Of a stretch of DNA of 64,000 nucleotides, positions 2,490-61,176 are shown one piece after another. This DNA is from an uncultured Acidobacteriota bacterium (lineage in GTDB: Bacteria > Acidobacteriota > Vicinamibacteria > Vicinamibacterales > 2-12-FULL-66-21). The notes under the pieces were generated by a model that ran no database searches, was not told the DNA's origin, and saw only the letters and a program-made list of their open reading frames with translations. The DNA is taken from NCBI GenBank assembly GCA_963749835.1, contig CAVVOD010000004.1, forward strand, positions 361,061-425,060, given 5' to 3'. Each line of letters begins with the position of its first letter. The first letter of the stretch is position 1. Made by a program: the position numbers and the translations under genes.

Positions 2490-2522
2490 CCCTCAGATGT
2501 TACTTCGGCCGGTACCTTCGCC

Positions 2523-2603
2523 GGGGTCAAACCCCGGTCGTCGCTTTACGTACTTCTGGTATCACGGCGGGTGGGGTCAGACCCCGGTCGTCGGATTACG
2601 CAC
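2523..2603. repeat. two copies, 50 nt apart, of a 31-nt repeat GGGGTCARACCCCGGTCGTCSSWTTACRYAC containing the palindrome GGGGTC-A-GACCCC
   Basis: Copies at 2523-2553 and 2573-2603. A third copy at 31872-31902 matches copy 2 at 29 of 31 positions. Confidence 0.8.
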
Positions 2604-2615
2604 TTTTTAGCGGGG

Positions 2616-2885
2616 CTATCGCTCGTGGAGGCGGTACGCGAGCTCGCCGGCTTCAATCCTGATCGGCAACTGGTTCTCGCGGGTCGGGAGCGGGCATGTC
2701 GCGAAATCGGTGAAGGCGCACGGAGGGTTGTACGCGTGGTCGAAGTCGAGGATGACGATGCCGTCCTGCGGGAGCGGCGTGTGGAGAAAACGGCCGGCGG
2801 GATTGGTGGCGTCCCGGCTGGTCAGATCCTTGAAAATGAAGAACAGATCCTTCCGCTCGTCGGTTTCGTAGATGAGAGCTGACAG
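2616..2885 (-). pseudogene. DUF1684 family protein, C-terminal remnant (~88 codons, no start codon)
   Basis: My minus-strand translation gives [86 protein letters not shown]. It carries the DUF1684 hallmark (LDFNxAYNPPCA..CP.P..EN.L). An in-frame TAG lies immediately upstream inside the heptamer array. There is no room for the N-terminal half before dinB. Confidence 0.6.
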
Positions 2886-2930
2886 CTAATAGCTGACAGC
2901 TGAGAGCTGAGAGCTGAGAGCTGAGAGCTG
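2874..2930. repeat. tandem heptamer array (NANAGCT)x8, mostly GAGAGCT
   Basis: gagagct gacagct aatagct gacagct gagagct gagagct gagagct gagagct, read directly. The same family in opposite orientation is at 8503-8573. Confidence 0.9.
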
Positions 2931-3025
2931 CCCCCCGTGCGTGTTACGCTCGTCGAACCCTGTCACCCGGACCGTGTGCCGTCGGCCTCGCGAACCGGCG
3001 CGCAACGGCTGTCCGTGCTGCGAAC

Positions 3026-4135
3026 ATGCTGAACGTGCGCCGCATCCTTCACATCGACATGGACGCGTTCTACGCCTCGGTGGAGCAGCGCGACAAACCG
3101 GAGCTGCGCGGCCTGCCTGTTGCTGTCGGCGGATCGCCGGAACATCGCGGGGTCGTGGCGGCCGCGAGTTACGAGGCGCGGGCATTCGGCGTGTACTCAG
3201 CGATTCCGATGTCTCGGGCGGTGCGACTGTGCCCGTCACTCGTGATTGTCCGGCCTGATTTCGCGCGCTACAAGGCGGCGTCGCAGGCCGTGTTCGACAT
3301 CTTCCGGTCGGTCACGCCGCTGGTCGAACCGCTGTCGCTCGACGAGGCCTACCTCGACGTCACCGACAACGCGTGGGGGGAGCCGCTTGGCCGGACGGTC
3401 GCCGGCCGGCTGAAAGTGGAAATCCGCGCGGCAACCGGTCTCACAGCGTCGGCGGGGGTCGCGCCCAACAAGTTTCTCGCGAAGATCGCGTCGGGATGGA
3501 AGAAGCCGGACGGCCTGACCGTCATCCCACCTGGGCGTGTCGAACAATTCCTGCACAGGTTGCCGGTGGACGCGCTGTGGGGCGTGGGGCCCGTCACTGC
3601 AAAGCGGCTTCGGGAGCGCGGCATCGAACGTCTCGTGGACGTTCGCGCGATCGATGAGACGGTCCTCCGGGAGGCCGTCGGCAGTAACGCCGACTGGCTG
3701 CGTCAACTGGCCGCGGGCATCGACGATCGGCCGGTCGTGCCCAACCGCTCGGCAAAGTCGTCCGGCACCGAGAACACGTTTTCGGACGACCTGACCGACC
3801 TGTCGCAGATTCGCGCGGAGGTCGATGAAATGGCCCGGGGGGGCGCCGCCTGGCTCGAGCGAAGGACGCTGACCTGCCGGACGGTGACGATCAAAGTCCG
3901 GTACTCAGATTTCACGACGATCACGCGCAGCCATTCGACGGTGCCCTCGACGCGAGATCCCGACGACATCGCCGCACGAGCGGTGGCGCTCCTCGAACGC
4001 ACCGAGGCCGGCCAGCGCCCGGTGCGGCTTCTGGGTGTGAGCGTGCACAACCTGATCGATCCGTCTGGAGCGCCGGAAGAGGAAGTCGCCGCGCTGCCGC
4101 TGTTCGACAACAGCAGCGCGGATGAAGAGGACTAG
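3026..4135 (+). CDS. dinB: DNA polymerase IV (Y-family translesion polymerase)
   Basis: 369-aa ORF. ILHIDMDAFYASVEQRD.., ..SLDEAYLDVT.., ..ASAGVAPNKFLAKIAS.. are canonical DinB motifs. Confidence 0.95.
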   Translation: MLNVRRILHIDMDAFYASVEQRDKPELRGLPVAVGGSPEHRGVVAAASYEARAFGVYSAIPMSRAVRLCPSLVIVRPDFARYKAASQAVFDIFRSVTPLVEPLSLDEAYLDVTDNAWGEPLGRTVAGRLKVEIRAATGLTASAGVAPNKFLAKIASGWKKPDGLTVIPPGRVEQFLHRLPVDALWGVGPVTAKRLRERGIERLVDVRAIDETVLREAVGSNADWLRQLAAGIDDRPVVPNRSAKSSGTENTFSDDLTDLSQIRAEVDEMARGGAAWLERRTLTCRTVTIKVRYSDFTTITRSHSTVPSTRDPDDIAARAVALLERTEAGQRPVRLLGVSVHNLIDPSGAPEEEVAALPLFDNSSADEED

Positions 4136-5739: not shown

Positions 5740-5774
5740 ATGGGCCGTCCGTCTATTATGGACTCATTCGAGGT

Positions 5775-5989
5775 GATCGACTCGGGATCCGGGACTCGGG
5801 ACTGGGGATTCGTGGCCGAGCTGGACTGCCAGAGATCGAGCCCGAATCCCGAGTCCGGTCCTATCGAGTCCCGAATCCCGACTGACCGAGTCCCGAATCC
5901 CGACTGACCGAATCCCGAATCCCGACCGACCGAATCCCAAATCCCCACTGACCGATCCCGAGTCCCGAGTCCCGGATCCCGAGTCGATC
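5775..5989. repeat. composite hairpin element: 29-bp perfect terminal inverted repeats (5775-5803 / 5961-5989) enclosing 4 tandem 22-bp units (5866-5953) built from CCCGARY heptamers
   Basis: gatcgactcgggatccgggactcgggact is the exact reverse complement of agtcccgagtcccggatcccgagtcgatc. The units are gagtcccgaatcccgactgacc x2, gaatcccgaatcccgaccgacc and gaatcccaaatccccactgacc. Confidence 0.9.
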
Positions 5990-7235
5990 ATTTCTGCCGG
6001 ACGTCGAACGCCGTCACATTGTCCTGATCGCGGATGAAGAGCTTGCCGTTCGAGACGACGGGATGGCTCCATGTCGGCAGGCTGCCGGTTGGAATCTGGA
6101 AGCGGCCGTGCTCCCGGTATCCGGCCGGGCTGGCCTCGGCGAGGCCGACGACTCCCTGCTCACTGTAGAGGTACAGCCGGTCGTCCGCGAAGACCACGGA
6201 TCCCTTGCCCACGCTGCGATCTCGCCACGCGACCTCGCCGCTGTCGAACTTCATGGCGGTCAGGATCGCGTCGGAGAACCCATAGAGATGATCGCCGATG
6301 AGCACCGAGCTCGCGTGATGGTTCCGCATCTCGCGCGTGAAGTAGACCTGCTTCGCGTCGATGCGGCCGCTCCCCGGCGTCAGCTCGAGGAGCGCGGCCC
6401 CTGTGCTGTAGCCCGACGAGAGGAACACGTGGTTCCCACGGACAATCGGCGTCGCGATGTTGGCCGTGCGGTTGGCGACCTGGGTGTAACTCCACTGCAG
6501 CTTCCCGGTTTCGATGTCGATGCCGAGCGCCCGTTCACCGGTGAAATAGATGGCTTCTCGGATGCCTCCGGCTTCGTGGAGCACGGCCGACGAGTACCCG
6601 GGCTCATCCGCGAGGCTCTTCCAGATAAGGGAACCGTCCGTCTTCTTGAGCGCCACGATGGAGGCTCCCTGGCCTCCGGGGCTGACGAGGATCCGATCGC
6701 TCAACACCAGCGGCGATTCGCTGAGCCCCCACTGAATGTTCCGGCCACCGAACTTCTCCAGGACGTTGACCTTCCAGAACACCTTGCCCGTGGCGGACTC
6801 CACGGCCGCGAGATCACCGCTGGCGCCGAACACATACAGGCGGTCGCCGTCCACCGTCGGCGTGGCCCTTGGACCGTCGCCCCGATCATTTCCGAACTGG
6901 CGGCCGTGCGGGACCTCCCACAGCTTCTTACCGGTCGCGGAATCGAACGCCATCACATATTCGGTCCCACCTCGTGCGCCGAGGGTATACAGGCGCCCGT
7001 TGCCGGTCGCGAAGGATGAGTAGCCCGCGCCGGCGCCCGCGGCGCGCCACGCGACGGGAGGTCCGGTCTTTGGCCAGTCCTTGAGAAGGCCCTTCTCGAC
7101 CGACACGCCGTCCCGCTTTGCGCCCCGCCACTGGGGCCAGTCGTCCAGCGAACGGTTCGAAACCGCCGCCGGGAGGGAGAGCATGGCAATTACGGCCAGG
7201 GCAGGACCCGCCGAACGGCGAAAGCGTGAATTCAT
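5988..7235 (-). CDS. secreted PQQ-like / BamB-type beta-propeller repeat protein
   Basis: ORF 5988..7322. I prefer the internal ATG at 7235 (MNSRFRRSAGPALAVIAMLSLPAAVS signal peptide, GGAG about 8 nt upstream). Repeated ..W....G......P.v.dg.vy.. blades are typical of PQQ-like propellers. Confidence 0.85.
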   Translation of the reverse strand: MNSRFRRSAGPALAVIAMLSLPAAVSNRSLDDWPQWRGAKRDGVSVEKGLLKDWPKTGPPVAWRAAGAGAGYSSFATGNGRLYTLGARGGTEYVMAFDSATGKKLWEVPHGRQFGNDRGDGPRATPTVDGDRLYVFGASGDLAAVESATGKVFWKVNVLEKFGGRNIQWGLSESPLVLSDRILVSPGGQGASIVALKKTDGSLIWKSLADEPGYSSAVLHEAGGIREAIYFTGERALGIDIETGKLQWSYTQVANRTANIATPIVRGNHVFLSSGYSTGAALLELTPGSGRIDAKQVYFTREMRNHHASSVLIGDHLYGFSDAILTAMKFDSGEVAWRDRSVGKGSVVFADDRLYLYSEQGVVGLAEASPAGYREHGRFQIPTGSLPTWSHPVVSNGKLFIRDQDNVTAFDVRQK

Positions 7236-8476: not shown

Positions 8477-8502
8477 GCGCGAATTATACGGGGCGGGCAG
8501 TT

Positions 8503-8612
8503 CTCAGCTATTCAGCTCTCAGCTCTCAGCTCTCAGCTCTCAGCTATCAGATCTCAGCTCTCGGCTAACAGGCTTTTCCGGCGAGCCCCGGGCCCCGAAT
8601 CCCGAGTCCCGA
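8503..8612. repeat. tandem heptamer array (CTCAGCT)n, about 10 units (8503-8573), followed by a short CCCGARY run (8590-8612)
   Basis: tcagcta ttcagct ctcagct x4 atcagat ctcagct ctcggct, then ccccgaatcccgagtcccgaac. Read directly. Confidence 0.85.
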
Positions 8613-8836
8613 ACTGGACCTCAGCCCTCGCCGCGAGAGCGCGACGACAGATCTACTCATCCGCGCAGTCTCAGCAATATACGGATCGTGCTCCCTGAAC
8701 ATCGAAACGCAGTTCTCAGCCCAGCTTTTTACATCCCAATTAAGATATTGCAAACAAAGCACTTATGTCATGCATGGATACTACGGTAGCGGATGAGGCG
8801 GTGTAATGCTGAGTTAGAGGAGTATAGTGTCCTACC

Positions 8837-11803
8837 ATGATTCAGGCACTTCGGCAACTCATCCGCATTTTCGTCATCGTTCTCGGCGTGCAAAGTCTCC
8901 TGCCGGGCGTTGCGTCCGCACAGCAGCCGCCATGGGTCAACGTGACGGGCAATCTGGCGAATATGCCGTCCGAGTGCGGAAACCTGACCATGGTTTCTGC
9001 GGTGCCTGGCGCCAGCACGGTGCTTGCGGGCGTCGCAACCAAAGGCCTGTGGGCGAACAGCACCGGAGATCAATGGGTTCAGCTCGGGACCGGGGCCTCG
9101 TCAGCGACCATCCTCAATCGACCCATCGGGATTGCTTACGATCCCGTCAATTCGGGCGTCTTCTGGGAGTCAGGTATTTACGGCACTGGCGGTGGGGTGT
9201 ACAAGACTACGGATGGCGGCAGTACGTTCGTCCAACTCGGGACCGTATTTCACAACGACTATATCAGCGTTGATTTTGCCGATCCTGCCCGTCAGACGTT
9301 GCTGACCAACGGTCACGAAACGCAGCAGCAGGTGTACCTGTCGACCAACGGCGGACAGGCGTGGACCAATATCGGTTTGAACCTTCCTGCCAATACTGCG
9401 GCCGGCTATCCCCTGCTCCTGGACTCTCAGACGTATCTGGCCGGCGCAGCCCAGGATTTCGGGACCCCTGGCATCCATCGAACAACGAACAGCGGGGCCA
9501 GCTGGCAAAAGGTCAGCGACGACGGACCTAACGCGGCACCGCTGGTGGCTTCAGACGGCATTATCTATTGGTCTCATGCCGACAAGGTTCTCAAATCCAC
9601 GAATTCCGGAGTGACCTGGACTCAAGTTGGAAGCGGCCTGCAGATTGGTCCGTCCGTTGCGATCATCGAGCTGCCCGATGGAACGCTGGTGGGCGTGGGG
9701 ACCACGACCCTGATGAGGTCCGCTGATGGCGGGTCCACGTGGTCTCCGATTGGCCCGACACTGCCGCTATTCAAACCCATATCGTTGACGTATTCGGCGG
9801 CCCGCAAGGCCTTCTTCATTTCGCATTTTGACTGCAACAACTTCGTGTTGCCCGATGCGGTCATGAGCCTTACCTTCGACCCCCTGGCGCAGCCACCGAC
9901 AATGACGCTGGACAGGACGGCGCTCAGTTTCGGCGCGACGAGCGCCGGAGCCGCGTTCAGCAGCAAGACCGGCGCGCAGACGGTGCGGCTGACGCAAACC
10001 ACCGCCGGCACGGTCACGTGGACGGCGACGTCGAATCAGCCGTGGCTCTCCGTGTCGCCCGCATCGGGCACCGGCTCAGCGACACTGACGATCAACGTGG
10101 CGTACTCGAGCAGCGTCGCCACGGCGGGAGTGCAAAGCGGCGCGATCACCCTCGCGTTCAACGGCGCCGCGAACAATCCCGGGCCGGTCAACGTTTCGCT
10201 CAGGACGCTCGTCAACGGCACGGGCCCCACCGGTGCGTTCGATACGCCGACCCACAATACGACGGGCGTGACCGGCTCGATCCCGGTGACCGGCTGGGCG
10301 ATTGACGACCTCGAGGTCACCCGCGTGCGGATCCTGCGCGATCCGGTCGCCGGCGAAGGGGCCGCGCCGGTCTTCATCGGCAACGCCGTCTTTGTCGACG
10401 GGGCTCGCGTGGACGTCGCAACGCGCTACCCGGGCGCGCCGCGCAATACGCGGGCGGGCTGGGGCTATCTGATGCTCACGAATTTCCTGCCCAACCAGGG
10501 GAACGGGACGTTCAAGCTCTATGCGTATGCCGACGATGCCGACGGGAATACGACCGTTCTGGGCACAAAGACAATCGTGTGCGACAACCTGCACGCCATT
10601 ACGCCATTCGGGGCAATCGACACGCCCCTGCAGGGGGCGGTCGTCAGCGGGGTCGTCAACAACTTCGGGTGGGTGCTGGCGCCCGGGACAGGGTCAGTCC
10701 GCGCCGATGTCCCCGGAGGCGGCACGGTGAATGTCGTGATTGACGGAGCGGTCGTGGGCGCGCCCGCTGGGTGGACGTCTCGCACGGATCTGACAACGCT
10801 GTTTCCGACCGGGTTCTCGTCCCTGGCCTCGACGCTTGCGGTGTTCCCCATCGATACGACCGGGCTCACCAACGGCGTCCACACGATCGCCTGGGGGGTC
10901 GTGGCGAACACCGGGCCGGCCTCCGGGGTCGGCAGTCGCTACTTCACGGTGAGCAACGGCAGCGGTCTGCAGGCAGGCGTCCAGGCGCCCCGGGTCAGCG
11001 GCGCGGGGCCGGCCTCGATGACCGCGGTGCGCTCGCACGCACGCGGGTCGGTCGCAGAGACGATCGCGCGTAGTACAGAGGTGAACGCCGCGCCACTGGA
11101 GCGCGCGTCGATCAGCGGGCGTCGTGGTTATGACATCGATGCGCCGTTCCAGCCGTTCCCGGTTGCGGCCAGCGGCCGGACCACAGTGCAAGGGGAGGAG
11201 CTGGACCGCTTCGAGCTGCGGTTGAGCGAAACGGACGGGGAGCGCTACACCGGCTACATGCGCGGCGGGGCCGAGTTGCACGCGCTGCCGATTGGATCGC
11301 GCATCGATCCCGCGACCGGTGTGTTCACGTGGGCGCCCGGAGTCGGTTTCGTTCGCAACTACGACCTCGTGTTCGTCCGATGGACCGATGGTCAGGCGGT
11401 AGCGCGACGGGAAGTGCGATTCGTCCTGCATCCCAGGGGCAGCAATCGGCTTGGGCCGCAGGTCACCATCGACACGCCGGCTGCGAAGGCGACGGTCGGT
11501 CGCGCGTTCTCAATCGGCGGCTGGGCGATCGACCTCGATGATCGCGTGGGCACCGGAATCGACACGCTGCATGTGTGGGCGTATCCGGCGCGCGGCGGCG
11601 ACCCGATCTTCCTCGGCGCGGCGGCGTACGGCGGTGCCCGCCCCGATGTGGCGGCGATCTACGGCGATCGGTTCAAGAACAGCGGCTACGGGATCCGCGT
11701 CGACTCGCTGCCACCGGGACAGTACGATGTAGCCGTGTTCGCGTGGAGCATCCTGAAGGACGGGTTCGTGCCCGCGAAAGTGGTGAGAGTGACGGTTCGA
11801 TAG
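8837..11803 (+). CDS. large secreted protein: BNR/Asp-box beta-propeller N-terminal half plus repeated Ig-like C-terminal domains
   Basis: 988 aa with a signal peptide (..LLPGVASAQQ). Five Asp-box-like motifs are present (TTDGGSTF, STNGGQAW, TTNSGASW, STNSGVTW, SADGGSTW). Three C-terminal repeats have the form ..IDTP....V.G.....GWA.D.. An AT-rich promoter-like island lies at ~8700-8836. Confidence 0.85.
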   Translation: MIQALRQLIRIFVIVLGVQSLLPGVASAQQPPWVNVTGNLANMPSECGNLTMVSAVPGASTVLAGVATKGLWANSTGDQWVQLGTGASSATILNRPIGIAYDPVNSGVFWESGIYGTGGGVYKTTDGGSTFVQLGTVFHNDYISVDFADPARQTLLTNGHETQQQVYLSTNGGQAWTNIGLNLPANTAAGYPLLLDSQTYLAGAAQDFGTPGIHRTTNSGASWQKVSDDGPNAAPLVASDGIIYWSHADKVLKSTNSGVTWTQVGSGLQIGPSVAIIELPDGTLVGVGTTTLMRSADGGSTWSPIGPTLPLFKPISLTYSAARKAFFISHFDCNNFVLPDAVMSLTFDPLAQPPTMTLDRTALSFGATSAGAAFSSKTGAQTVRLTQTTAGTVTWTATSNQPWLSVSPASGTGSATLTINVAYSSSVATAGVQSGAITLAFNGAANNPGPVNVSLRTLVNGTGPTGAFDTPTHNTTGVTGSIPVTGWAIDDLEVTRVRILRDPVAGEGAAPVFIGNAVFVDGARVDVATRYPGAPRNTRAGWGYLMLTNFLPNQGNGTFKLYAYADDADGNTTVLGTKTIVCDNLHAITPFGAIDTPLQGAVVSGVVNNFGWVLAPGTGSVRADVPGGGTVNVVIDGAVVGAPAGWTSRTDLTTLFPTGFSSLASTLAVFPIDTTGLTNGVHTIAWGVVANTGPASGVGSRYFTVSNGSGLQAGVQAPRVSGAGPASMTAVRSHARGSVAETIARSTEVNAAPLERASISGRRGYDIDAPFQPFPVAASGRTTVQGEELDRFELRLSETDGERYTGYMRGGAELHALPIGSRIDPATGVFTWAPGVGFVRNYDLVFVRWTDGQAVARREVRFVLHPRGSNRLGPQVTIDTPAAKATVGRAFSIGGWAIDLDDRVGTGIDTLHVWAYPARGGDPIFLGAAAYGGARPDVAAIYGDRFKNSGYGIRVDSLPPGQYDVAVFAWSILKDGFVPAKVVRVTVR

Positions 11804-11885
11804 CGTGGCGTCAAGAGAACGTACAGCTCTCAGCCGTCAGCTGCGAGTTGGCCGGAAGTGCTTCAGAGGTTTTGCGAAGAAGATC

Positions 11886-12233
11886 AAACACGGAGGCACG
11901 AAGACACGGAGTCCGGACGGAGGCCCCACGAAACGGGTGGTCGGGGCGCGCTCCGCGCGGTGCGGCGAGGACATCTCGCAAACACAAACTCCATCTCACT
12001 TACGGGGAGCTTGTGTTTGCGAGATCTCCTCGCTGCACTCGCCGGCCGAATGGCCGGCGCCCGACCACCCCGGACTCCCCGCAGTCCTATGGCGACAGCG
12101 ACAACAGCCACGGTTGGACACGGCCATCCTCCGAACGGCCCGTGCCTTCGGGTAACCCCCAATCTCTCCGTGCGTCCCCGTGTCTCAGTGGCTCCGTGGT
12201 GGAATTTTCCGTGCCCTCCGTCTCCTCCGTGCC
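11886..12233. mobile_element. MITE-like multi-hairpin element, copy D1 (CACGGAG-type inverted termini, central ~26-bp-stem hairpin 11966-12030)
   Basis: Left end is aacacggaggcacgaagacacggag. The right end ctctccgtgcgtccccgtgtctcagtggctccgtggtgg is the reverse complement of a sequence nearly identical to the left end of D2 (ccaccacggagtcactgagagcacggagacgcacggagag). Internal inverted pair: gggtggtcggggcgc / gcgcccgaccaccc. No ORF with protein character. Confidence 0.65.
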
Positions 12234-15200
12234 CTATCCCCCCGGCGCCACTGGGACAGGCGCCGGGTCGTACGCGAGGTTCGGCGCGAGCCAGCGCTCG
12301 ATGGTCTCGATGTCGGCATCCTTCCGCATGGCGTAGGACTCCACCTGATCCCGTGCAATCCGGCCGACGTTGAAGTACTTCGCCTCCGGATGTGAGAAGT
12401 ACAGCCCGCTCACCGAGGCCGCCGGCAGCATCGCAAAGCTCTCCGTCAGCGTGAGCCCCTGCCGGCCCGCGTCCAGCGCGTCGAACAGCTTGCCCTTCTC
12501 GGTGTGGTCCGGACACGCGGGATAGCCGTATGCCGGACGGATGCCACGATACTTCTCGGCGACGAGATCGTCGTTCGACAACTGTTCCTGGTCGCCGTAT
12601 CCCCAGTCCTTCCGCGCCTGCGCGTGGAGGTACTCCGCGAACGCCTCGGCGAGTCGGTCGGCCAGCGCCTTCACCATGATCGCGTTGTAGTCGTCGTGAT
12701 CCCGCTCGAAGCTCCGCGCCAGTTCGTCAGCGCCGAGTCCGGCCGTCACCGCGAACATCCCGATGTAGTCCGGCACGCCGGTGTCCAGCGGCGCGATGAA
12801 ATCCGCAAGCGATCGGTTCGGACGCTTGTCGGCAATCACTTCCTGCTGGCGCAGCATCGGCAGCCGCGTCAGCTCGACGCGACGCGTGTCGTCCGCGAAC
12901 ACGACGATGTCGTCGCCGACGCTGTTGGCGGGCCAGAAGCCATAGACACCACGGGCCGACAGCAGCTTCTCCTTGATGATCCGCTTGAGGAGTTCCTGCG
13001 CGTTCGCATACAGCTCGCGTGCGGCCGATCCGTAGGTCGGATGTTCCAGGATCGCGGGGAAGCGCCCCTTGAGCTCCCAGGCCGAGAAGAAGAACGTCCA
13101 GTCGATATACCTGGCAATATCCTCGAGCGCCACGTCATCCAGGTATCGGCGCCCGACGAACCACGGTGACGCAATGACGTGACCGTCCCAGTCGATCGTG
13201 AGGCGGTTCGCGCGCGCCTGCTCATACGTCAGCAGCGGTTTCTGCCGCCGCGTGGCGTAGCTCTCGCGAATCTCCGCCTGCGCCACACGGTTCACCCGGT
13301 CGAACTCCTCCCGCCTCTCGCCGATGACGCTTGACACCACGTCCACCGCCCGCGACGCGTCGAGCACGTGGATCACCGGGCCGGAGTATTCGTGCGCAAT
13401 CTTGACGGCCGTGTGCTGCCGGCTCGTCGTCGCTCCCCCAATCAGGAGCGGCGTCGTGAAGCCGCGGCGCTCCATCTCCCGCGCGACGAACGCCATCTCG
13501 TCGAGCGACGGCGTGATGAGCCCGCTCAGCCCGATGATGTCGGCCTTGTGTTCCACCGCCGCATCGAGGATCTTCGCCGCCGGGACCATCACCCCGAGGT
13601 CGATCACCTCGTAGTTGTTGCAGCCCAGCACGACCCCGACGATGTTCTTGCCGATATCGTGAACGTCTCCCTTCACCGTCGCCATCAGGACACGGCCCTG
13701 CGCCGACGCGGCGCCCGTGATGCGCTTACGCTCTTCCATGTACGGCAGCAGGTAGGCGACCGCCTTCTTCATCGCCCGCGCGCTCTTGACGACCTGCGGC
13801 AGGAACATCTTGCCCGCACCAAACAGATCGCCGACGACCTTCATCCCGTCCATCAGCGGGCCCTCGATGATGTGCAGCGGCTCTTCATACTTCTGCCGCG
13901 CCTCCTCGACGTCCACCTCGATGAAGTCCACGACGCCGTGCACGAGGGCGTGCGACAGCCTCGCCTCGACGGTGGCCTCGCGCCAGCCGAGATCGGCTTC
14001 CCGCTTCGTCCCGCTCCCCTTGACGCTGTCCGCGAACTGCACGAGCCGCTCCGTCGCGTCAGGACGACGGTTGAAGATGATGTCTTCGACGTGTTCCAGC
14101 AGGTCCTTCGGGATGTCTTCGTAGACGATCAGCTGTCCGGCGTTGACGATGCCCATGTCCATGCCGGCCTTGATGGCGTGATACAGGAACGCGGAATGGA
14201 TGGCCTCGCGGACGACGTCGTTGCCGCGGAACGAGAAGGACAGGTTGCTGACGCCGCCGCTGATCTTGGCCCCCGGACAGGTCGCCTTGATGATCTTCAG
14301 CGCCTCGATGTAGTTGACCGCATAGTTGTTGTGCTCCTCGAGCCCTGTCGCGATGGCGAGGATGTTCGGATCGAAAATGATGTCGGTCGGATCGAACCCC
14401 GCCTGCTGGATGAGGAGCGTGTAGGCGCGCTGGCAGATCTGCACCTTGCGCTCGACGGTGTCCGCCTGGCCTGTCTCGTCGAAGGCCATGACGACGACGC
14501 CGGCGCCGTACCGGCGGACCGTCCGCGCCTTGTGGAGGAAGTCCTCTTCCCCTTCCTTCAGGCTGATGGAGTTGACGACCCCCTTGCCCTGGACGCACTT
14601 GAGTCCGGCCTCGAGCACGGTCCACCGGGAGCTGTCGATCATCACCGGGACCCGCGCGATCTCCGGCTCCGTCGCGATGAAGTTCAGGAACGTCGTCATC
14701 GCCTGCTCGGAATCGAGCATGCCTTCGTCCATGTTGACGTCAATCATGTTGGCGCCGCCGCGCACCTGCTCGACCGCGACGCTGACGGCCTCGGTGTAGT
14801 TCCCGCTCTTGATCAGCCGCGCGAACTTCGCCGACCCCGTGACGTTGGTGCGCTCGCCAATCATCTGGAAGTTGCTCTCCGGACGGATCGTCAGCACTTC
14901 GAGCCCGGAGAACTGGGAATAGTGGACGGGATCGGGACTCGGGGCTCGAGACTCGGGATTCGGGGCTCGGGACTCGGGGCTCGGCTCGGATTCGGGACTC
15001 GGGATTCGCCCGCCCCCGCTCGCATCCACATCTGTGCGAGCTACGGCGAGGCCGCGCCGTAGCCGCGCCGCGGCGGAGGCGGGGGACTCGGGGCTCGCCG
15101 GATCGGGACTCGGCGACCCGGGCGCCGTAGCTTCCGCCTTCAGGCGGAAGGATGCTGCAGACACCCATGACGGCGACGGCAGCGGCCGCGGCGTCACGCG

Positions 15201-16190
15201 CTCGACGGCCCTGGCGATGGCCGCGATGTGTTCCGGCGTCGTGCCGCAGCAGCCCCCGAGAATGTTGGCGAAGCCGCTGGCGGCGAAATCCTCGAGCAGG
15301 ACGGCGGTTTCCTCGGGCTGCTCGTCGTACTCGCCGAACGCGTTCGGGAGCCCCGCGTTGGGATAGCTGCTGACGTAGCACTCGGATATCCGCGCGAGCT
15401 CCGCCATGTACGGCCGCATCTCGCGCGCACCGAGCGCGCAGTTGATGCCGACGCTGAACGGCTGCGCGTGCCGGATCGAGGTGTAGAACGCGTCCACTGT
15501 CTGGCCGGACAGGGTTCGGCCGCTCCGGTCCGTGATGGTGACCGAGATCATGACGGGCAGGCGCGTGCCCTTTTCCTCGAACACGTTCTCAATCGCGACG
15601 ATCGCGGCCTTGGCGCCCAGGGTGTCGAAGATGGTTTCGAGCAGGAGCAGGTCCGAGCCGCCGTCGATGAGGCCGCGGACCTGCACCTCGTAGGCCGCGC
15701 GCAGCTCGTCGAAGGTGATGGCGCGAAAGGCGGGGTTGTTGACGTCGGGTGAGATGGAGAGCGTGCGATTGGTCGGTCCGAGCGCGCCCGCGACAAAGCG
15801 CGGCCGGTCGGGCGTCCTGGCCGTCCAGGCGTCGGCCGCCTCGCGCGCAAGCCGCGCCCCTTCGACGTTGATCTCGTACGCGAACGGCTCCAGCTCGTAG
15901 TCGGCCTGTGCCACCGCGGTGCCGCCGAACGTATTGGTCTCGATGATGTCGGCGCCGGCCGCGAGGTACTCGAGGTGAATCGCGCTGATCACATCCGGGC
16001 GCGTCAGGACGAGGATGTCGCTGTCCCCCTTCAGATCCCGGGGATGCGTGGCGAACCGTTCGCCGCGGAAGTCCGCCTCCGTCAGTTTCGCGCGCTGGAT
16101 CATCGTGCCCATGGCGCCGTCGAGAATGAGGACGCGGCGTTCGAGGAGAGAGCGAAGCGTGTCGACGGCAGGACTCTTCATACTGGTCAT
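12234..16190 (-). CDS. metH: cobalamin-dependent methionine synthase
   Basis: 1318 aa. All MetH modules are recognisable: Hcy-binding (..[20 protein letters not shown]), pterin-binding (..GERTNVTGS..), B12-binding (..[13 protein letters not shown]..) and the AdoMet activation domain (..[12 protein letters not shown]..). About 90 aa longer than the 1227-aa E. coli enzyme because of the linker insertion annotated separately. Confidence 0.97.
14926..15172 (-). repeat. intergenic-type repeat cassette (heptamer run + GCGAGCTACGGCG + CTTCCGCC-TGAA-GGCGGAAG-CTACGG hairpin) embedded in-frame in metH
   Basis: + strand 14928-15008 reads gggatcgggactcggggctcgagactcgggattcggggctcgggactcggggctcggctcggattcgggactcgggattcg. 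Position 15044 has gcgagctacggcg, and 15125-15150 carries the hairpin module. It is translated as ..[86 protein letters not shown].. Confidence 0.85.
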
Positions 16191-17245: not shown

Positions 17246-17275
17246 ATCTACTAATCTACATGTATTGATGCGAGA
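17246..17275. promoter_or_regulatory. AT-rich island directly upstream of the SahR-like gene (direct repeat ATCTAC-N2-ATCTAC, palindrome TACATGTA); candidate promoter or operator
   Basis: atctactaatctacatgtattgatg, read directly. It is the only AT-rich stretch in this spacer and abuts the preferred ATG with no Shine-Dalgarno, so a leaderless transcript is possible. Confidence 0.3.
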
Positions 17276-17300
17276 TGGCAAGGGCGGTGTCGCTTCGAGC

Positions 17301-17373
17301 GGTCAGCTCTCAGGTCTCAGCTGTGAGCCATTGGTATCGGAGCTGAAAGCTGAGTGCTGAGAGCTGAGAGACC
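17301..17373. repeat. inverted pair of GAGAGCT-family heptamer runs forming an imperfect hairpin
   Basis: ggtcagctctcaggtctcagctgtgagcc .. ggagctgaaagctgagtgctgagagctgagagacc. It lies between the M13 peptidase stop and the SahR-like start. Confidence 0.75.
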
Positions 17374-17379
17374 GCGCGG

Positions 17380-19422
17380 TTACCAGACCCGGCAGACGGG
17401 TTGATTCACCATGGGCGAGCCGCTCGGGCAGGCGAAGGCCTTCTGGAACTCGGGGAAGTTCGACACCACGCCGTTCACGCGATACCGGCCCGGAGCGTGG
17501 GGGTTCGTGGTCGCGTACACGCGTGCGATTTCGTCGGTCTTGTTCTCGCACCACATCTGACCCCAGCCGATGAAGAACCGCTGCTCGGGTGAGAACCCGT
17601 CGGCCTGGCCGAGCGGCCTGGTGGCCAGCCTGTCCATCAGCGCCATCCAGCCCAGCCTGAGCCCGCCGTTGTCGGCGGCGTTCTCGCCCAGCGTCAGCTT
17701 GCCGTTGATCTTGACGTCGGCGACGGCGGTATAGCCCGAATACTGATTGGCGATGCAGGCGGCGCGCTCTTCGAATGCCTTCGCGTCGGCGGGCGTCCAC
17801 CAGTCGCGGAGGTTGCCCGACGCATCGAACTGGCGCCCCTGGTCGTCGAAGCCGTGGGTGAGCTCGTGCCCGACGACCGCCCCCGCGGCCCCGAAATTCA
17901 CCGCATCGTCGGCCGAGTTGTTGAAGAAGGGAGGCTGCAGGATGCCGGCCGGAAAGTTGATGTTGTTCTCGAGCGGGTTGTAGTACGCGTTCACCGTCGG
18001 CGGGGTCATCAGCCACTCGGTCTTGTCCACGGGCTTTCCGATCTTTCCCAGCTGCCGGGCGAACTCGAACGTGTTGGCCCGCTGCGAGTTGCCGAGCGCA
18101 TCACCGCGCACGATGCTGAGCGCCGAGTAGTCGCGCCACTTGTCGGGGTACCCGATCTTGTTGGCGACGGCCTTCAGCTTCTCGGCCGCCTGCTTTTTGG
18201 TGGCCTCGGACATCCACTCGACGCCGACGATGTCCCGGCCCATCGCCTGTTCGATGGCCTCGACCATCTCGAGCGTGCGGGCTTTCCCCTCGGCTCCAAA
18301 CGCCTGCGCGATGTAGGCCTGGCCGACGACCTCGCCGAGATCGCCGTTCGTGTAATCGACGCAGCGCTTCCAGCGGGGGCGCTGCTCCTTCGCGCCGGTG
18401 AGCGTGCGAGTAAATGCGAAGTTCTCCTCGACGAACGGCTTCGGCAGGAATTCGGCGTTGCCGTTCACCAGGTGCCAGCGCAGATACGTCTGCATGTCGC
18501 CAAGCGGGGTCGACGAGACGATCTGGTTGACCGCGCGCATGAACTCCGGCTCGCTCACGTTGATCGCGCTCACGGCTCCGGCCTGCACCTCCCGCAGATA
18601 GGCCGTCCAGTCGAAGGCCGGCGTGAGGGCTCGGAGCTCGTCGACGGGCATCTTGTGATAGACGTTGGCAGGCGTCCGGCGGCTCACGCGGTCGAGGGCG
18701 GCTTTGGCGAGCGCGGTCTCGATGCGCATGACGGCCTGGGCGCCGGCGTCCGCCTGGGCGGGCGCATCACCGGCGAGGCGAAGCACGCGGCCGACGTGCG
18801 CCACGTATTCCAGCTTCACCTTCTGTGAGCTCGCGTCCTCCTTCAGGTAGTAGTCGCGATCCGGCAGCCCCATGCCACCCTGCGCGAGGCCGGCAATCAC
18901 CGATGACGCATCCTTGAAATCCGGCGTGGACCCGAACCCGAAGAGGACGCCGGTTCCCTTTCGATGGAGTGCGGCGACAACCGGGGGCAGGTCAGCCGCG
19001 CTTCGGAGCGCCGCAATGCGATCGAAATCCTCCTTGAGTGGCGCCAGTCCCTTTGCCGCGATGCCGCTCTCGTCCATGCAGCTCGCGTAGTACGCGCCAA
19101 TCTTCGCCGTGTCACCATCGGCGCGCGACGAGGCGGCTGTTTCGAGAATCTGGTGGAGGATTTCGTTGTTGCGTTCCTGCAGCTCGTTGAAGCGGCCGTA
19201 GTTGGACTGGTCCGCGGGCAGCGGATGCTTCGTCATCCAGCCGCCGCACGCGAAGCGATAGAAATCGGTGCAGGCGTCCGCCGTGCGATCCATCGCCTCC
19301 GGATCGATGCCGGACACGCTGGAAGGAGCACCGGGTTGCTTCTGCGGTGCGGACGCGCGCTGAGCCGCGGCAGGCACGATTGCGAGTGCAATCAGGACGA
19401 GCGGGACAACTGTTTTTCGCAT
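17380..19422 (-). CDS. M13 family metallopeptidase (PepO / endothelin-converting-enzyme-like), secreted
   Basis: The track ORF extends to 19710. I prefer ATG 19422 (MRKTVVPLVLIALAIVPAAAQ signal peptide). Motifs: zinc motif VVGHELTHGFD and ENAADNGGL. Confidence 0.92.
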   Translation of the reverse strand: MRKTVVPLVLIALAIVPAAAQRASAPQKQPGAPSSVSGIDPEAMDRTADACTDFYRFACGGWMTKHPLPADQSNYGRFNELQERNNEILHQILETAASSRADGDTAKIGAYYASCMDESGIAAKGLAPLKEDFDRIAALRSAADLPPVVAALHRKGTGVLFGFGSTPDFKDASSVIAGLAQGGMGLPDRDYYLKEDASSQKVKLEYVAHVGRVLRLAGDAPAQADAGAQAVMRIETALAKAALDRVSRRTPANVYHKMPVDELRALTPAFDWTAYLREVQAGAVSAINVSEPEFMRAVNQIVSSTPLGDMQTYLRWHLVNGNAEFLPKPFVEENFAFTRTLTGAKEQRPRWKRCVDYTNGDLGEVVGQAYIAQAFGAEGKARTLEMVEAIEQAMGRDIVGVEWMSEATKKQAAEKLKAVANKIGYPDKWRDYSALSIVRGDALGNSQRANTFEFARQLGKIGKPVDKTEWLMTPPTVNAYYNPLENNINFPAGILQPPFFNNSADDAVNFGAAGAVVGHELTHGFDDQGRQFDASGNLRDWWTPADAKAFEERAACIANQYSGYTAVADVKINGKLTLGENAADNGGLRLGWMALMDRLATRPLGQADGFSPEQRFFIGWGQMWCENKTDEIARVYATTNPHAPGRYRVNGVVSNFPEFQKAFACPSGSPMVNQPVCRVW

Positions 19423-22742: not shown

Positions 22743-22761
22743 CTTGCGCCTGCGCTCGATG

Positions 22762-22890
22762 CGGGAGCTACGGCGGGGCCAGGCCCCATTTCGGGATTCG
22801 GGACTCGGGACTCGGGGTTCGGAAATGCGGAAGCTGGAAGCCGGAAGCTGGAAGCCGGAAGCTGGAAGCTGGCAGCTGACAGCTGATGTC
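22762..22890. repeat. spacer holding three abutting heptamer families plus GGGAGCTACGGCGG and a GGGGCC-A-GGCCCC palindrome
   Basis: gggattc gggactc gggactc ggggttc, then cggaagc tggaagc x6, then tggcagc tgacagc tgatgtc. Read directly; all have a 7-nt period. Confidence 0.9.
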
Positions 22891-22898
22891 TGCCCCTG

Positions 22899-33692: not shown

Positions 33693-33702
33693 GAATCCCG
33701 TC

Positions 33703-35076: not shown

Positions 35077-35204
35077 CGAGGCTCGAACTGCGAGCGAGTA
35101 ATGGTCTCGCTTTCGAACGACGTTCAGGACTCGCCTCCAAAAGAATCGTCAACAGGAGACCACGAGGTCAGGAGGAGTTGTGTGAAAAGGGTGGAGGAAA
35201 AGAT

Positions 35205-35555: not shown

Positions 35556-35585
35556 CGCTCGTCTTTGCCGGTTTTGAGACGCCCC

Positions 35586-38225: not shown

Positions 38226-38231
38226 GCCGCA

Positions 38232-44030: not shown

Positions 44031-44080
44031 CTTCCGCCTAAAGGCGGAAGCTACGGAGTCCCGATCCCCGATCCCCGATC
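44031..44080. terminator. hairpin module CTTCCGCC-TAAA-GGCGGAAG-CTACGG followed by CCCGATC heptamers, filling the 59-nt spacer between convergent ldcA and the M49 peptidase gene; candidate bidirectional terminator
   Basis: cttccgcctaaaggcggaagctacggagtcccgatccccgatccccgatc, read directly. It has an 8-bp GC-rich stem and a 4-nt loop. The terminator function is inferred only from its position. Confidence 0.5.
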
Positions 44081-46098: not shown

Positions 46099-46172
46099 TT
46101 CCTTCCGCCTGACCAGCCTGCGCCAAACCCCGAACCCCGAGTCCCGAATCCCGATCCCCCGAGTCCCGAATC
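46099..46172. repeat. half hairpin module (CCTTCCGCCTGA..) plus a CCCGARY heptamer run with six C-tracts
   Basis: ccttccgcctgaccagcctgcgccaaaccccgaaccccgagtcccgaatcccgatcccccgagtcccgaatc. It abuts the beta-CASP gene stop. Confidence 0.8.
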
Positions 46173-48530: not shown

Positions 48531-48542
48531 CCGCTTCGCGGC

Positions 48543-48646
48543 CGGATCGGGATTCGGGATTCGAGTCCCGAGTCGTCTTCCGGCTAAAGCCGGAAGCTAC
48601 GTGGTGCAGGTCCCGATCCCCGAACCCCGAATCCCGAATCCCGAGT
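48543..48646. repeat. composite: G-orientation heptamers, hairpin module CTTCCGGC-TAAA-GCCGGAAG-CTACG (48577-48601), then C-orientation heptamers
   Basis: ggatcgggattcgggattcgagtcccgagtcgtcttccggctaaagccggaagctacgtggtgcaggtcccgatccccgaaccccgaatcccgaatcccgag, read directly. Confidence 0.9.
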
Positions 48647-48660
48647 GTTAACATGGCCCG

Positions 48661-49319: not shown

Positions 49320-49354
49320 CGAATCCCCAATCCCTGATCCCTCATCCCTGATCG
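49320..49354. repeat. heptamer array (NNATCCC)x4-5 directly upstream of the aminotransferase ATG
   Basis: gaatccc caatccc tgatccc tcatccc tgatcgg, followed by tATG. It fills the whole 42-nt spacer. Confidence 0.85.
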
Positions 49355-56371: not shown

Positions 56372-56380
56372 AGGGGCATT

Positions 56381-57046: not shown

Positions 57047-57115
57047 CTTTGTCCTCCGGGGAGCCATGTTTCCGACGAGTGATTTAAGTGCGAATTCACG
57101 ATTGGTGCTCAGCAA

Positions 57116-59557: not shown

Positions 59558-59569
59558 AGGCAGCACACA

Positions 59570-60622
59570 GTGACCATGGACCCGGCGGCGCAGAAGGCGA
59601 TCGTGGGATGGGGCATCGCGATGACGGCGCTGGCCGTCGTCATTCTCTGGTGCGCCTATCTGGTGCGCGAGGTGCTGCTCCTCATCTACGTCAGCGGGCT
59701 GCTGGCGATCGGGTTCAGTCCGATCGTGCGCCTGATCGAGCGGCAGAAAGCGCTGCCCATCGGGACGCGGCGGTTCCCGCGCTGGCTTGCCATCCTGACG
59801 CTCTACCTGTTCATCCTGGGGACGCTGACGGGCATCGGATTCATGATCGTGCCGCCCGTGGTCCATCAGGGGCAGCAGCTCTGGACGGCGTTCCCCGACA
59901 TGTTCGATCGCGGTCAGGAGTTCCTGATCCAGAAGGGCATTCTCAAAGAGCACCTGACGCTGCGGGAAGCGGTCGCGCGCGCTCCCAAAACAGGAAGCAG
60001 CGAGGCGGTCGGCACGGTGATGGGGGCCGTCGTCGGGGTGGTGGGCGGGCTCTTTGGTCTCCTCACGATCCTGATTCTCACCTTCTACCTCCTCGTCGAG
60101 GCGGACAACCTGCGCGAGACGATGCTCCGGCTGTTTCCCCGGCGGAATCGGACGCGCGTCGCCGCGGCGAGCCGGGACATCACGGTGAAGGTGAGTGCGT
60201 GGCTCGGGGGCCAGCTGCTGCTGGGCGCTATCATCGGCGGCTCATCGGCGCTTGCACTCTGGCTGCTCGGCATCCCGTTCTTCTACGTGCTGGCACTCAT
60301 TTCCGGGATTGGAGAGCTCATCCCGGTCGTCGGTCCCATCCTGGCGGCGATTCCCGCGATCATCGTCGCGTCCACGGTTTCGCTGAACAAGGCGATCCTG
60401 GTGATCGTGTTCTTCATCGTCCAGCAGCAGTTCGAGAATCACGTCCTCGTTCCCAAGATCATGGAGCGCCAGGTGGGTGTGAGCGCGGTGACCGTGATCA
60501 TTGCGCTGCTCATCGGCGGGAAACTCCTTGGCATCCCGGGAGCCATTCTCGCCGTGCCGAGCGCCGCGATCCTGCAGGTCCTCTTCACGGAATTCACCAC
60601 GCAGCGGGACAGGCAGAGCTGA
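59570..60622 (+). CDS. AI-2E family transporter (PerM/YhhT-like)
   Basis: 350 aa, about 8 hydrophobic helices. ..ELIPVVGPILAAIPAI.. and ..QQFENHVLVPKIM.. are family signatures. Confidence 0.88.
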   Translation: MTMDPAAQKAIVGWGIAMTALAVVILWCAYLVREVLLLIYVSGLLAIGFSPIVRLIERQKALPIGTRRFPRWLAILTLYLFILGTLTGIGFMIVPPVVHQGQQLWTAFPDMFDRGQEFLIQKGILKEHLTLREAVARAPKTGSSEAVGTVMGAVVGVVGGLFGLLTILILTFYLLVEADNLRETMLRLFPRRNRTRVAAASRDITVKVSAWLGGQLLLGAIIGGSSALALWLLGIPFFYVLALISGIGELIPVVGPILAAIPAIIVASTVSLNKAILVIVFFIVQQQFENHVLVPKIMERQVGVSAVTVIIALLIGGKLLGIPGAILAVPSAAILQVLFTEFTTQRDRQS

Positions 60623-60623
60623 A

Positions 60624-60754
60624 GGGGACTCTGGATCGGGGATCGGGGATCAGGGATTGGGGACTGGGGACTGGGGATAAGGGATTGGGACGTTCGAGTC
60701 CTCGAATCCTGAATCCCGAGTCCCCGATCCCTGATCCCCGATCCCCGATCCCGG
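60624..60754. repeat. long hairpin of opposed heptamer runs: 24-bp perfect inverted repeat (60634-60657 / 60727-60750); the G-rich arm has >=8 G-tracts
   Basis: gatcggggatcggggatcagggat is the exact reverse complement of atccctgatccccgatccccgatc. The sequence between the arms is also partly self-complementary (ggggactggggactggggataagggattggga / tcctcgaatcctgaatcccgagtcccc). Confidence 0.9.
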
Positions 60755-60840
60755 CCCGGTTGGCACCCGCATTGATGGGCGCCATCGCGACGGCGACTTC
60801 CTGGCCGGAATAGGCAGGCCGCGGGAGACTTGGCGGAAGG

Positions 60841-61176
60841 GTGAGTGGTGAAATGAGCACCGCCGGTGGTACCCGCCGGAACCTGTTCGGCGATGTCGCA
60901 CTCGTCGCGTTCCTGCTGGCGCAGGCATCGGACGGTGTGCTGACCTACATCGGCGTGCGCACTTTCGGGGTGCGCATCGAAGGCAACCCTCTCATCGCGT
61001 GGCTGATGACCGCCATGGGCGAAGTCCCCGCGCTCGCCACAGCCAAGCTGACGGCCGGGTTCTTCGGCGTCGCCCTCCACATGTCATCCGTTCACCGGGC
61101 TGTCGCGCTGCTGGCGGCTTTTTATGTCGCCGTCGCGGTCGTCCCGTGGATCGCGATCCTTTTCTACCTCAACTGA
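60841..61176 (+). CDS. small membrane protein, DUF5658-like
   Basis: 111 aa (GTG start in the track; ATG 12 nt downstream). Three hydrophobic helices. ..LAQASDGVLTYIGV...EGNPL..W... Confidence 0.65.
   Translation: MSGEMSTAGGTRRNLFGDVALVAFLLAQASDGVLTYIGVRTFGVRIEGNPLIAWLMTAMGEVPALATAKLTAGFFGVALHMSSVHRAVALLAAFYVAVAVVPWIAILFYLN

Follow-up and report, generated by a model that had tools for sequence, protein, structure and literature searches.

Tandem arrays of 7-nucleotide (nt) units recur between the genes of a stretch of DNA from an uncultured Acidobacteriota bacterium, which raises the question of how such arrays arise and why they occupy the positions they do. The stretch analyzed here, referred to as the window, comprises 64,000 nt of contig CAVVOD010000004.1 (assembly GCA_963749835.1), and our evidence on the source genome is limited to these 64 kb. 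An earlier description of the window, made from its letters alone (the sequence-only reading), labeled the arrays as heptanucleotide repeats resembling short tandemly repeated repetitive (STRR) sequences, and the tandem 7-nt units that we find at many intergenic loci support that label. We favor, at a probability of roughly 0.55, a reading in which the arrays are heptanucleotide simple-sequence repeats of the class found in Xanthomonas and Nostoc that are made by slippage and tolerated between a stop codon and the next promoter. The same description judged the genome to be acidobacteria-like, a view borne out by the relatives of the MetH protein encoded in the window. The best of these are metagenomic (94% identity), and the named matches are Acidobacteriota or Vicinamibacterales; the host is acidobacterial, and its order is probably Vicinamibacterales.

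Period-7 arrays in the window

Arrays were detected with Tandem Repeats Finder (score cut-off 30) and, independently, with a self-match scan that required 80% identity or more across 21 nt and was evaluated against locally shuffled sequence. The scan revealed 15 period-7 arrays spanning 629 nt of the window; shuffled sequences gave 0.2. No arrays were found at periods 2-6 or 8-12; periods 13 and 15 gave a single array each, and period 14 gave six. Thus, 7, together with its multiple 14, is the sole clearly enriched period in the window. The period had been described as strict, and enrichment of period 7 holds generally, but the array segment at 5842-5982 scores best at a period of 22 (7+7+8; 163 vs 81). 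Essentially all of the arrays claimed previously were recovered by Tandem Repeats Finder; the array at 11822-11850 is weak, with ~3.5 units and a score below 30.

The units belong to three families: GGGAYTC (CCCGART on the opposite strand), GAGAGCT (AGCTCTC on the opposite strand), and GGAAGCY. G-rich units (GGGAYTC, GGGGATC, and GGGGAYT) form arrays at 13 places that are spread from 5.7 to 60.8 kb. Unit counts vary from ~2.3 to ~20 per array, with a median near 5 in this small number of arrays. Families grade into one another within a single spacer, as had been noted, and they do so in register; the two-hydrolase spacer contains an unbroken period-7 tract (22787-22888) with two changes of unit.

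Spacers were defined on a gene map that was derived from codon statistics and checked with Pfam as well as with the gene calls of syntenic contigs. Those of at least 40 nt number 36 and total ~6.0-6.4 kb. Twelve of them contain arrays (8 of 19 co-directional, 2 of 7 convergent, and 2 of 9 divergent spacers), and the metH gene provides one additional site for a total of 13 loci. Because arrays occupy only about one third of the spacers, the statement that they fill almost every intergenic spacer is too strong. The arrays sum to ~0.92 kb, 0.84 kb of which is intergenic and constitutes ~14% of intergenic DNA. The earlier figure of 2-2.5 kb, taken to be most of the non-coding DNA, requires the addition of three unrelated repeat modules and even then corresponds to ~35% of non-coding DNA. 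That arrays are mostly kept out of genes agrees with our map, in which metH holds the only G-rich array inside a gene. A CRISPR-like array was rejected because spacers are absent and the unit is only 7 nt long. Scans of the window against Rfam (gathering thresholds) and for tRNAs produced no matches.

Distribution and turnover among relatives

The comparison set consisted of six syntenic contigs from independent metagenome assemblies, designated L001, L002, L003, L122, L123, and L124. Five of the six contigs carry period-7 arrays, with essentially no arrays of other periods, at densities of 0-7 arrays per 16-24 kb; together the six contain 16 arrays in ~126 kb, compared with 15 in the 64-kb window. 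Arrays are also present at ~28 acidobacterial loci identified in public genomes. The recurrence of the same array families in independent assemblies rules out an assembly artefact, the concern that the sequence-only reading had itself raised. The trait is lineage-wide, and its density is very variable.

The public loci came from a scan for three consecutive CCCGART units in one genome per species, which returned at least 118 loci among the matches listed. Among these listed matches, ~48 loci belong to Lysobacterales/Xanthomonadales, 28 to Acidobacteriota (11 of them Vicinamibacterales or subdivision 6), 7 to Planctomycetota, and 4 to Gemmatimonadota. The acidobacterial loci hold further period-7 arrays built from many other units. 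For units other than G-rich ones, 327 kb of acidobacterial sequence contains 26 arrays of period 7, as opposed to 2 of period 8 and 7 of period 6. Contig L123 (67% GC) contains AT-rich heptamers (AATTCAC/AATTGTG) at 1991-2125, 21610-21641, and 22844-22874, an inverted pair included. These AT-rich arrays indicate that the period-7 habit is independent of G-rich units. A period of 7 that is favored whatever the unit reflects the way in which arrays are generated rather than one particular structure. G-quadruplex formation as the cause of the period was therefore rejected, since units that lack G tracts share it.

Comparison of individual sites revealed rapid turnover. Among relatives, the nucleotide identity of genes that flank the arrays is 82-92%, and the arrays are the points at which alignments are interrupted. 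All four genomes hold arrays in the spacer between the two hydrolase genes (22787-22888), with mixes of units and lengths that differ greatly. Past the PQQ-repeat gene, arrays occur in all three genomes that cover the site, each with its own units, and the lengths in L001 and L002 differ as well. At the site of the window's 8498-8566 array, L001 has a CCCGART array and L002 a palindromic element. The inverted pair at 17303-17370 is found in the window only; L001, L002, and L003 are without it, and L003 has an unrelated hairpin at the site. Conversely, the spacer between the iron-permease and M3-peptidase genes contains an array in L002 alone. Orthologous spacers thus differ in copy number, unit type, and presence. 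Together with metH, where a two-unit seed has grown by 66 nt, these differences indicate that arrays lengthen, shorten, and swap units by whole-unit slippage.

Expansion within metH and altered genes elsewhere in the window

The metH gene (12234-16190, minus strand) encodes a product of 1318 amino acids, compared with 1277 in L001. Two in-frame insertions, +66 nt (14942-15007) and +57 nt (15099-15155), account for exactly the 41 extra residues. Pfam domain order places the insertions in the linker that joins the homocysteine-binding domain to the pterin-binding domain. The corresponding linker of relatives contains two 2-unit seeds. Nucleotide alignment revealed that L001, L002, and L003 keep only the 2-unit seed at the 14942-15007 site, and the 57-nt insertion adjoins the second seed. 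Translation of the array yields PSPES and PESRAPS repeats; the linker is hypervariable in protein alignments, and in L123 and L124 it holds other heptamer arrays. The array that had been reported inside metH is confirmed by Tandem Repeats Finder and lies in frame. The accompanying argument, that a period of 7 excludes arrays from genes because it is not a multiple of 3, is sound in spirit; within a gene, arrays are tolerated only in a slack linker and only at total lengths divisible by 3.

The truncation of a DUF1684 gene was likewise confirmed by tblastn. The remnant comprises residues 237-334 only, contains internal stop codons, and ends at position 2873, where the (GAGAGCT)8 array has its first base. 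Within 1521-2885, an aldo/keto reductase gene (1521-2489) lies between the glutamine synthetase III gene and this remnant. The counterpart of that region in L002 has only an intact DUF1684 gene, and the local rearrangement is bordered by repeat modules and by (GAGAGCT)8.

Several other genes in the window differ from those of relatives or are unusual in arrangement. The M3 oligopeptidase gene (24393-26262, plus strand) is split near 24684; relative to the L001 orthologue, which is intact, frame 3 encodes residues 13-98 and frame 1 encodes residues 99-622. One extra C is the apparent cause, and the gene is either a genuine pseudogene or affected by an assembly error of a single base. A 988-amino-acid gene (8837-11803, plus strand) with a weak BACON_2 match stands where L001 has PadR and MacB/FtsX genes; this break in synteny has heptamer arrays on one side and a palindromic element on the other. 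The 5' end of a Metallophos_2 phosphoesterase gene (34615-35076, plus strand) overlaps the start of the Amidohydro_2 gene on the opposite strand.

Position and polarity of arrays

Arrays occupy a characteristic position with respect to genes. Nine of the 10 non-divergent spacers have arrays that begin 0-18 nt past the upstream stop codon; the array of the tenth begins at 47 nt, and the arrays at 44080 and 46172 extend into the stop codon itself. Overall, 10 of the 12 spacer arrays come after stop codons, and the sole array within a gene stays in frame and in a linker. Polarity is also biased. Of 8 non-divergent G-rich spacers, 7 have the G-rich strand on the mRNA (distances of 0-47 nt; one-sided binomial 0.035), and a crude automated strand count over all fetched loci gave 56 G-sense versus 21 C-sense. 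Replication-strand bias is an unlikely cause because, throughout the window, the polarity of an array matches the direction of the gene beside it whichever way that gene points, on the assumption that the window belongs to one replication arm.

This placement and polarity favor an alternative in which the arrays are selected RNA elements at mRNA 3' ends, which would replace canonical intrinsic terminators in this lineage by terminating transcription without a U-tract or by blocking 3'-to-5' exonucleases. Such elements would resemble repetitive extragenic palindromic (REP) sequences and bacterial interspersed mosaic elements (BIME). In further agreement, transcription of most Xanthomonas repeats has been reported (Rehm et al. 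2015; PMC4692102). However, arrays in only one third of spacers, their frequent gain and loss, and their uneven density among relatives argue against a selected element of this kind. Moreover, two large arrays lie in divergent promoter spacers, another fills a 42-nt co-directional gap, and arrays expand in a protein linker too.

Two arrays stop at conserved promoter sequence: TTGCCA-17-TAGATT of an ArsR-methyltransferase gene and the CATAAT box of an NYN-domain gene. Conserved promoter-like boxes are found 6-7 nt 5' of the ATG at 8477-8500 and 17253-17281 (minus strand), where they read TATAAT for the peptidyl-prolyl isomerase gene and TTGCCA-17-TAGATT for the ArsR-methyltransferase gene. Boxes located so close to the ATG suggest leaderless mRNAs. 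Several genes preceded by arrays are without an obvious ribosome-binding site.

Three arrays (2873-2930, 8498-8566, and 22787-22888) reach promoter or start-codon regions, and copy number varies. Both features are compatible with phase-variation (contingency) repeats or with sites for a regulator that reads the 7-nt register. However, most arrays follow the stop codons of housekeeping genes (peptidases, aminotransferases, and transporters), the diversity of unit sequences is too great for one binding protein, and the array inside metH stays in frame. We consider contingency or regulator-binding repeats to be very improbable.

Folding and G-quadruplex motifs

Four spacers hold convergent inverted pairs, three of which are G-rich (5774-5990, 48547-48648, and 60624-60757) and one AGCT-type. 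These are predicted to be highly structured. The pair within 5760-5992 (minus strand) folds in the transcript sense to -139.9 kcal/mol (z -6.7), the pair within 60620-60765 (plus strand) to -108.2 kcal/mol (z -9.2), the composite within 48531-48660 (plus strand) to -62.9 kcal/mol (z -4.4) with a hairpin module at its tip, and the pair within 17290-17385 (minus strand) to -42.8 kcal/mol (z -5.0). Arms are complementary over 36 nt at 97% (5774-5809 with 5955-5990), 46 nt at 89% (60624-60757), 17 nt at 100% (48547-48648), and 26 nt at 85% (17303-17370). Because the arms are mirror copies down to their variant units, they suggest an origin by fold-back (template-switch) copying.

Arrays of a single polarity behave differently from the inverted pairs. 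The AGCT cores of 2873-2930 self-pair on folding (z -3.9), and statistical support for such quasi-palindromic self-pairing was obtained for the AGCT family only. Single-polarity G-rich arrays fold no better than shuffled sequences (z of -1.8 or higher), and the C-sense array at 49320-49353 is unstructured (z +2.2). Canonical terminator sites, composed of a hairpin plus a T-run, number 24 in the window versus ~32 expected from shuffled sequence, and none is at a gene end. The arrays lack a T-run, and terminator-like sites do not exceed the shuffled count; the proposal that arrays are canonical intrinsic terminators was accordingly rejected.

For a selected 3'-end element that acts without a U-tract, the evidence is divided. 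The four inverted pairs (-43 to -140 kcal/mol), terminator-like sites that number below expectation and are absent from gene ends, and the unrelated hairpin in L003 at the counterpart of 17303-17370 are in its favor, whereas the shuffle-like folding of single-polarity arrays and the lack of a U-tract in the arrays are not. We regard this explanation as possible but tentative.

Potential G-quadruplexes are also concentrated in the arrays, which contain 10 of the 11 motifs in the window. The G-quadruplex option of ViennaRNA predicts a quadruplex in the isolated G-rich arm at 60620-60692 (-30.7 vs -13.3 kcal/mol) and another at 22750-22898, and oligonucleotides representing Xanthomonas and Nostoc repeats form G-quadruplexes in vitro (Rehm et al. 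2015; PMC4692102). These observations would fit regulatory elements in which at least four G3 tracts, spaced 7 nt apart, fold in DNA or RNA and modulate the neighboring gene. Several lines of evidence oppose this idea. Wherever an inverted arm is present, the hairpin beats the predicted G-quadruplex by a wide margin, and several arrays contain fewer than four tracts. Units without G3 tracts (AGCTCTC, GGAAGCY, and AATTCAC of L123) share the period and the locations of G-rich units, so that G-quadruplexes account neither for the period nor for the arrays in general. Finally, Rehm et al. found no regulatory role for the repeats and no link to phase variation or mobile elements (PMC4692102). A regulatory function that depends on G-quadruplexes appears quite improbable.

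Hairpin module and other repeats in the spacers

Some of the arrays are accompanied by a 25-nt hairpin module, CTTCCGSCTRAAGSCGGAAGCTACG, which is present at 44031-44055 (plus strand), 48577-48601 (plus strand), and 15126-15150 (minus strand); these three copies compare with 0.00 expected. C-rich heptamers follow every copy on its own strand. The metH copy is translated FRLKAEAT, and its 57-nt insertion, which is clean and lies beside an existing heptamer seed, is missing in relatives that are 91-94% identical. The inverted pair at 17303-17370 likewise constitutes a discrete insertion. Such features raise the prospect of a mobile composite, related to MITEs (miniature inverted-repeat transposable elements) or to REP/BIME, in which the hairpin module and its heptamers are copied by transposition or inter-locus gene conversion. 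The module, however, has no match in the 121 related or public loci compared, and no transposase is evident among the annotated genes. Furthermore, no clear target-site duplication was seen at 17303-17370 or 15099-15155, and most arrays are without the module and vary as local slippage predicts. A mobile composite is in our judgment unlikely. More doubtful still is a broader version, in which heptamers and hairpin modules together would constitute a self-spreading composite, propagated by fold-back copying and by inter-locus gene conversion among arrays. Such a composite would supply 3'-end hairpins to a lineage without canonical intrinsic terminators and would occasionally be captured in frame, giving rise to new linker sequence in a protein, as in MetH.

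Two additional repeats are found in the spacers. A palindromic element of ~300-390 nt is present in the window at 11880-12233, 35199-35560, and 38226-38520 and in L002 at 14280-14705. It consists of nested inverted repeats, its ends are CACGGAG-type repeats of 8-10 nt, and one copy aligns to its own reverse complement. All copies in the window lie in convergent spacers, and the element has no Rfam match. The 20-mer GGGGTCAGACCCCGGTCGTC, a small hairpin, occurs at 2523-2542, 2573-2592, and 31872-31891 (all plus strand), three copies versus 0.02 expected. Two of these flank the spacer beside the aldo/keto reductase gene and the third lies in a convergent spacer.

Table 1 Heptamer arrays of the window with their period-7 matches in Tandem Repeats Finder (TRF) and their gene context.
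Array	Position	Strand	TRF match	Context
(GAGAGCT)x8	2873-2930	+	2873-2930	Divergent spacer adjoining dinB; period 7, 8.3 copies, 88% matches
GGGAYYC x5, G-rich arm	5774-5812	+	5779-5812	Distal arm of inverted pair 3' of PQQ-repeat gene
Longest array, ~20 units	5842-5990	-	5842-5982	G-rich on mRNA strand; 22-nt higher-order period; begins 2 nt past PQQ-gene stop
(CAGCTCT)x10	8498-8566	+	8498-8566	Divergent spacer; 22 nt 5' of peptidyl-prolyl isomerase start codon
GGGAYTC-type, 3-4 units	8585-8613	-	8594-8613	G-rich on minus strand; holds G-quadruplex motif
AGCTCTC-like, ~3.5 units, weak	11822-11850	+		18 nt past stop of 988-amino-acid gene; read from sequence
CCCGAGT/CCCGAAT expansion, in-frame 66 nt	14942-15007	-	14927-15008	Inside metH
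In-frame 57-nt insertion, hairpin module CTTCCGCCTGAAGGCGGAAGCTACG then heptamers	15099-15155	-		Inside metH
Inverted pair TCAGCTC x3 / GAGCTGA x4	17303-17370	-	17303-17322, 17340-17370	Hairpin 8 nt past M13-peptidase stop, 5' of next gene's -35 box
GGGAYTC x4, GGAAGCY x7, CAGCTGA x3, in register	22787-22888	+	22790-22886	Between two hydrolase genes; 47 nt past stop, 11 nt before next start
Short array, 2-3 units	33676-33700	-	33685-33700	G-rich on mRNA strand; 2 nt past Amidohydro_2 stop
Hairpin module (44031-44055) and (GGGGATC)x3	44031-44080	-	44060-44080	Overlaps M49-peptidase stop; G-rich on its mRNA; convergent spacer
~7 units	46123-46171	-	46126-46169	G-rich on mRNA strand; abuts beta-CASP ribonuclease stop; holds G-quadruplex motif
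Composite: G-rich arm, hairpin module (48577-48601), C-rich arm	48547-48648	+	48547-48563, 48612-48644	16 nt past stop; ends 13 nt before next start
C-rich array x5	49320-49353	+	49330-49353	Fills 42-nt spacer; sole case with C-rich strand on mRNA
Inverted pair GGGGAYY x9 / CCCGATC-type x9	60624-60757	+	60624-60689, 60694-60752	Begins 1 nt past AI-2E transporter stop; variant units mirrored between arms

Comparison with known repeat classes

Genomes of Xanthomonas have a GC content of ~65%. The sequence-only reading knew of no equivalent characterized in a high-GC, acidobacteria-like genome, and its premise of novelty fails because (GGGANTN)n heptamers that share the placement and structure of the arrays are known in Xanthomonas (PMC4692102). 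For Xanthomonas, Rehm et al. described heptamers of the (GGGANTN)n and GGGAATC types and, for Nostoc PCC 7120, of the GGGGA(C/T)T type; 89-93% of the repeats are intergenic, and the repeats are near an open reading frame on their 5' side. Many of these repeats form convergent inverted pairs, they are under-represented between divergent genes, and their length differs between related species at the same gene pairs (PMC4692102). Earlier surveys, as cited in PMC4692102, found an excess of heptamer repeats in numerous bacteria and saw longer repeat runs more often in genomes that are large and high in GC. In a 2014 survey, the representation of heptamer repeats was rated normal for the four genera of acidobacteria available at the time. 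We found no description of such heptamer arrays for Acidobacteriota in the literature; what is apparently new is the lineage, not the repeat type.

The positional and structural features of the Xanthomonas and Nostoc repeats all recur in the arrays described here. GGGAYTC fits GGGANTN, and GGGGATT and GGGGACT units are found at 60633-60689. The non-coding bias is strong, and arrays have a stop codon no more than 50 nt away, which some of them overlap, with their G-rich strand being the coding-sense one. Convergent inverted pairs are common, few arrays lie between divergent genes, the neighbors are housekeeping genes, and both length and sequence differ between related genomes at the same gene pair. 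Differences are nevertheless apparent. Besides the host phylum, the density here is ~1 G-rich array per 5 kb, compared with 186 arrays in the Xanthomonas campestris genome, and the AGCTCTC and GGAAGCY families coexist and merge in register with G-rich units. The preference for four units (the minimum for a G-quadruplex) in the Xanthomonas/Nostoc type is not evident among the few arrays here (~2.3 to ~20 units). A hairpin module accompanies some arrays in the window, and one expansion is in frame within a protein linker.

In heterocystous cyanobacteria, the STRR1 unit is CCCCAAT, STRR2 is TTGGTCA, and STRR3 is CAACAGT; STRR1 falls within the repeat class known from Xanthomonas and Nostoc. Like these sequences, the arrays are dispersed intergenic tandem heptamers with several unit families per genome, and the STRR1 unit (CCCCAAT/GGGGATT) is scattered through 49320-49353 and 60633-60689. 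Unlike them, the dominant units are CCCGART, AGCTCTC, and GGAAGCY, STRR2 and STRR3 units were not seen in the window, and the host belongs, by its MetH relatives, with Acidobacteriota/Vicinamibacterales rather than cyanobacteria.

Other classes are more distant. TAACTGA repeats of Beggiatoaceae, Cyanobacteria, and Bacteroidetes are also heptamer direct repeats that occupy many spacers and have a patchy phylogeny, but they consist of a single AT-rich unit in 2-6 copies, mostly a few nt 5' of start codons (MacGregor 2015; PMC4679880). The arrays here follow stop codons instead and are built from many different units. REP and BIME sequences of enterobacteria and pseudomonads share with the arrays a location in transcribed spacers 3' of genes, short structured repeats, hairpins, and a mosaic arrangement of modules. 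However, REP is a single conserved imperfect palindrome of 20-40 nt, whereas the arrays are tandem, 7 nt in period, and variable in unit; only the accessory 25-nt hairpin module is REP-like. Moreover, REPs are tied to REP-associated tyrosine transposases (RAYT; IS200/IS605-like Y1 enzymes), none of which is found among the ~30 annotated genes of the window. Contingency repeats of Haemophilus and Neisseria are slippage-prone tandem repeats whose copy number changes, as it does here, but they are located in the 5' coding regions or promoters of genes for surface structures or restriction-modification and have units of mostly 1-5 nt.

Discussion

The similarities to Xanthomonas and Nostoc, the turnover of arrays among relatives, and the growth of a seed in metH are consistent with a model in which heptanucleotide arrays are generated by slippage and tolerated. 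Arrays would persist where selection is slack, which would be the interval between a stop codon and the next promoter or a flexible protein linker; in a linker, only lengths divisible by 3 would survive. A polarity filter would retain arrays with the G-rich strand on the mRNA, possibly one in which long, unstructured C-rich RNA recruits the termination factor Rho. As a consequence, the 3' regions of many mRNAs would carry very stable hairpins or tracts with the capacity to form G-quadruplexes. Such hairpins and tracts may act, at some loci, as barriers to transcription or exonucleases, a property that would be a by-product of the arrays and not the reason for them.

Four considerations weigh against this model. 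First, two spacers retain an array across ~10-18% nucleotide divergence, which could mean selection. Second, the strand bias requires a filter, and the candidate that we propose (loading of Rho on C-rich RNA) is a guess. Third, the lack of canonical terminators at gene ends implies that another 3'-end signal must exist, for which the arrays are candidates. Fourth, the source genome is viewed over 64 kb only, and the tallies from public genomes, drawn from the matches listed, are a sample rather than a census. Regulation through G-quadruplexes, a mobile composite, and phase variation are each less likely than a selected role in termination or mRNA stabilization.

The arrays extend a poorly understood class of heptamer simple-sequence repeats to a soil phylum that ranks among the most abundant yet least studied, at a local density that exceeds the one reported for Xanthomonas. 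The shared period of G-rich, AGCT-core, and AT-rich units adds to the evidence that the mode of generation, and not the G-quadruplex, is the cause of the period. The linker of MetH provides a clean natural case of a non-coding type of repeat that grows in frame into a protein. In practical terms, arrays of this kind affect gene calling in high-GC metagenome-assembled genomes as well as assembly quality, and they are candidate markers for strain typing of uncultured acidobacteria.

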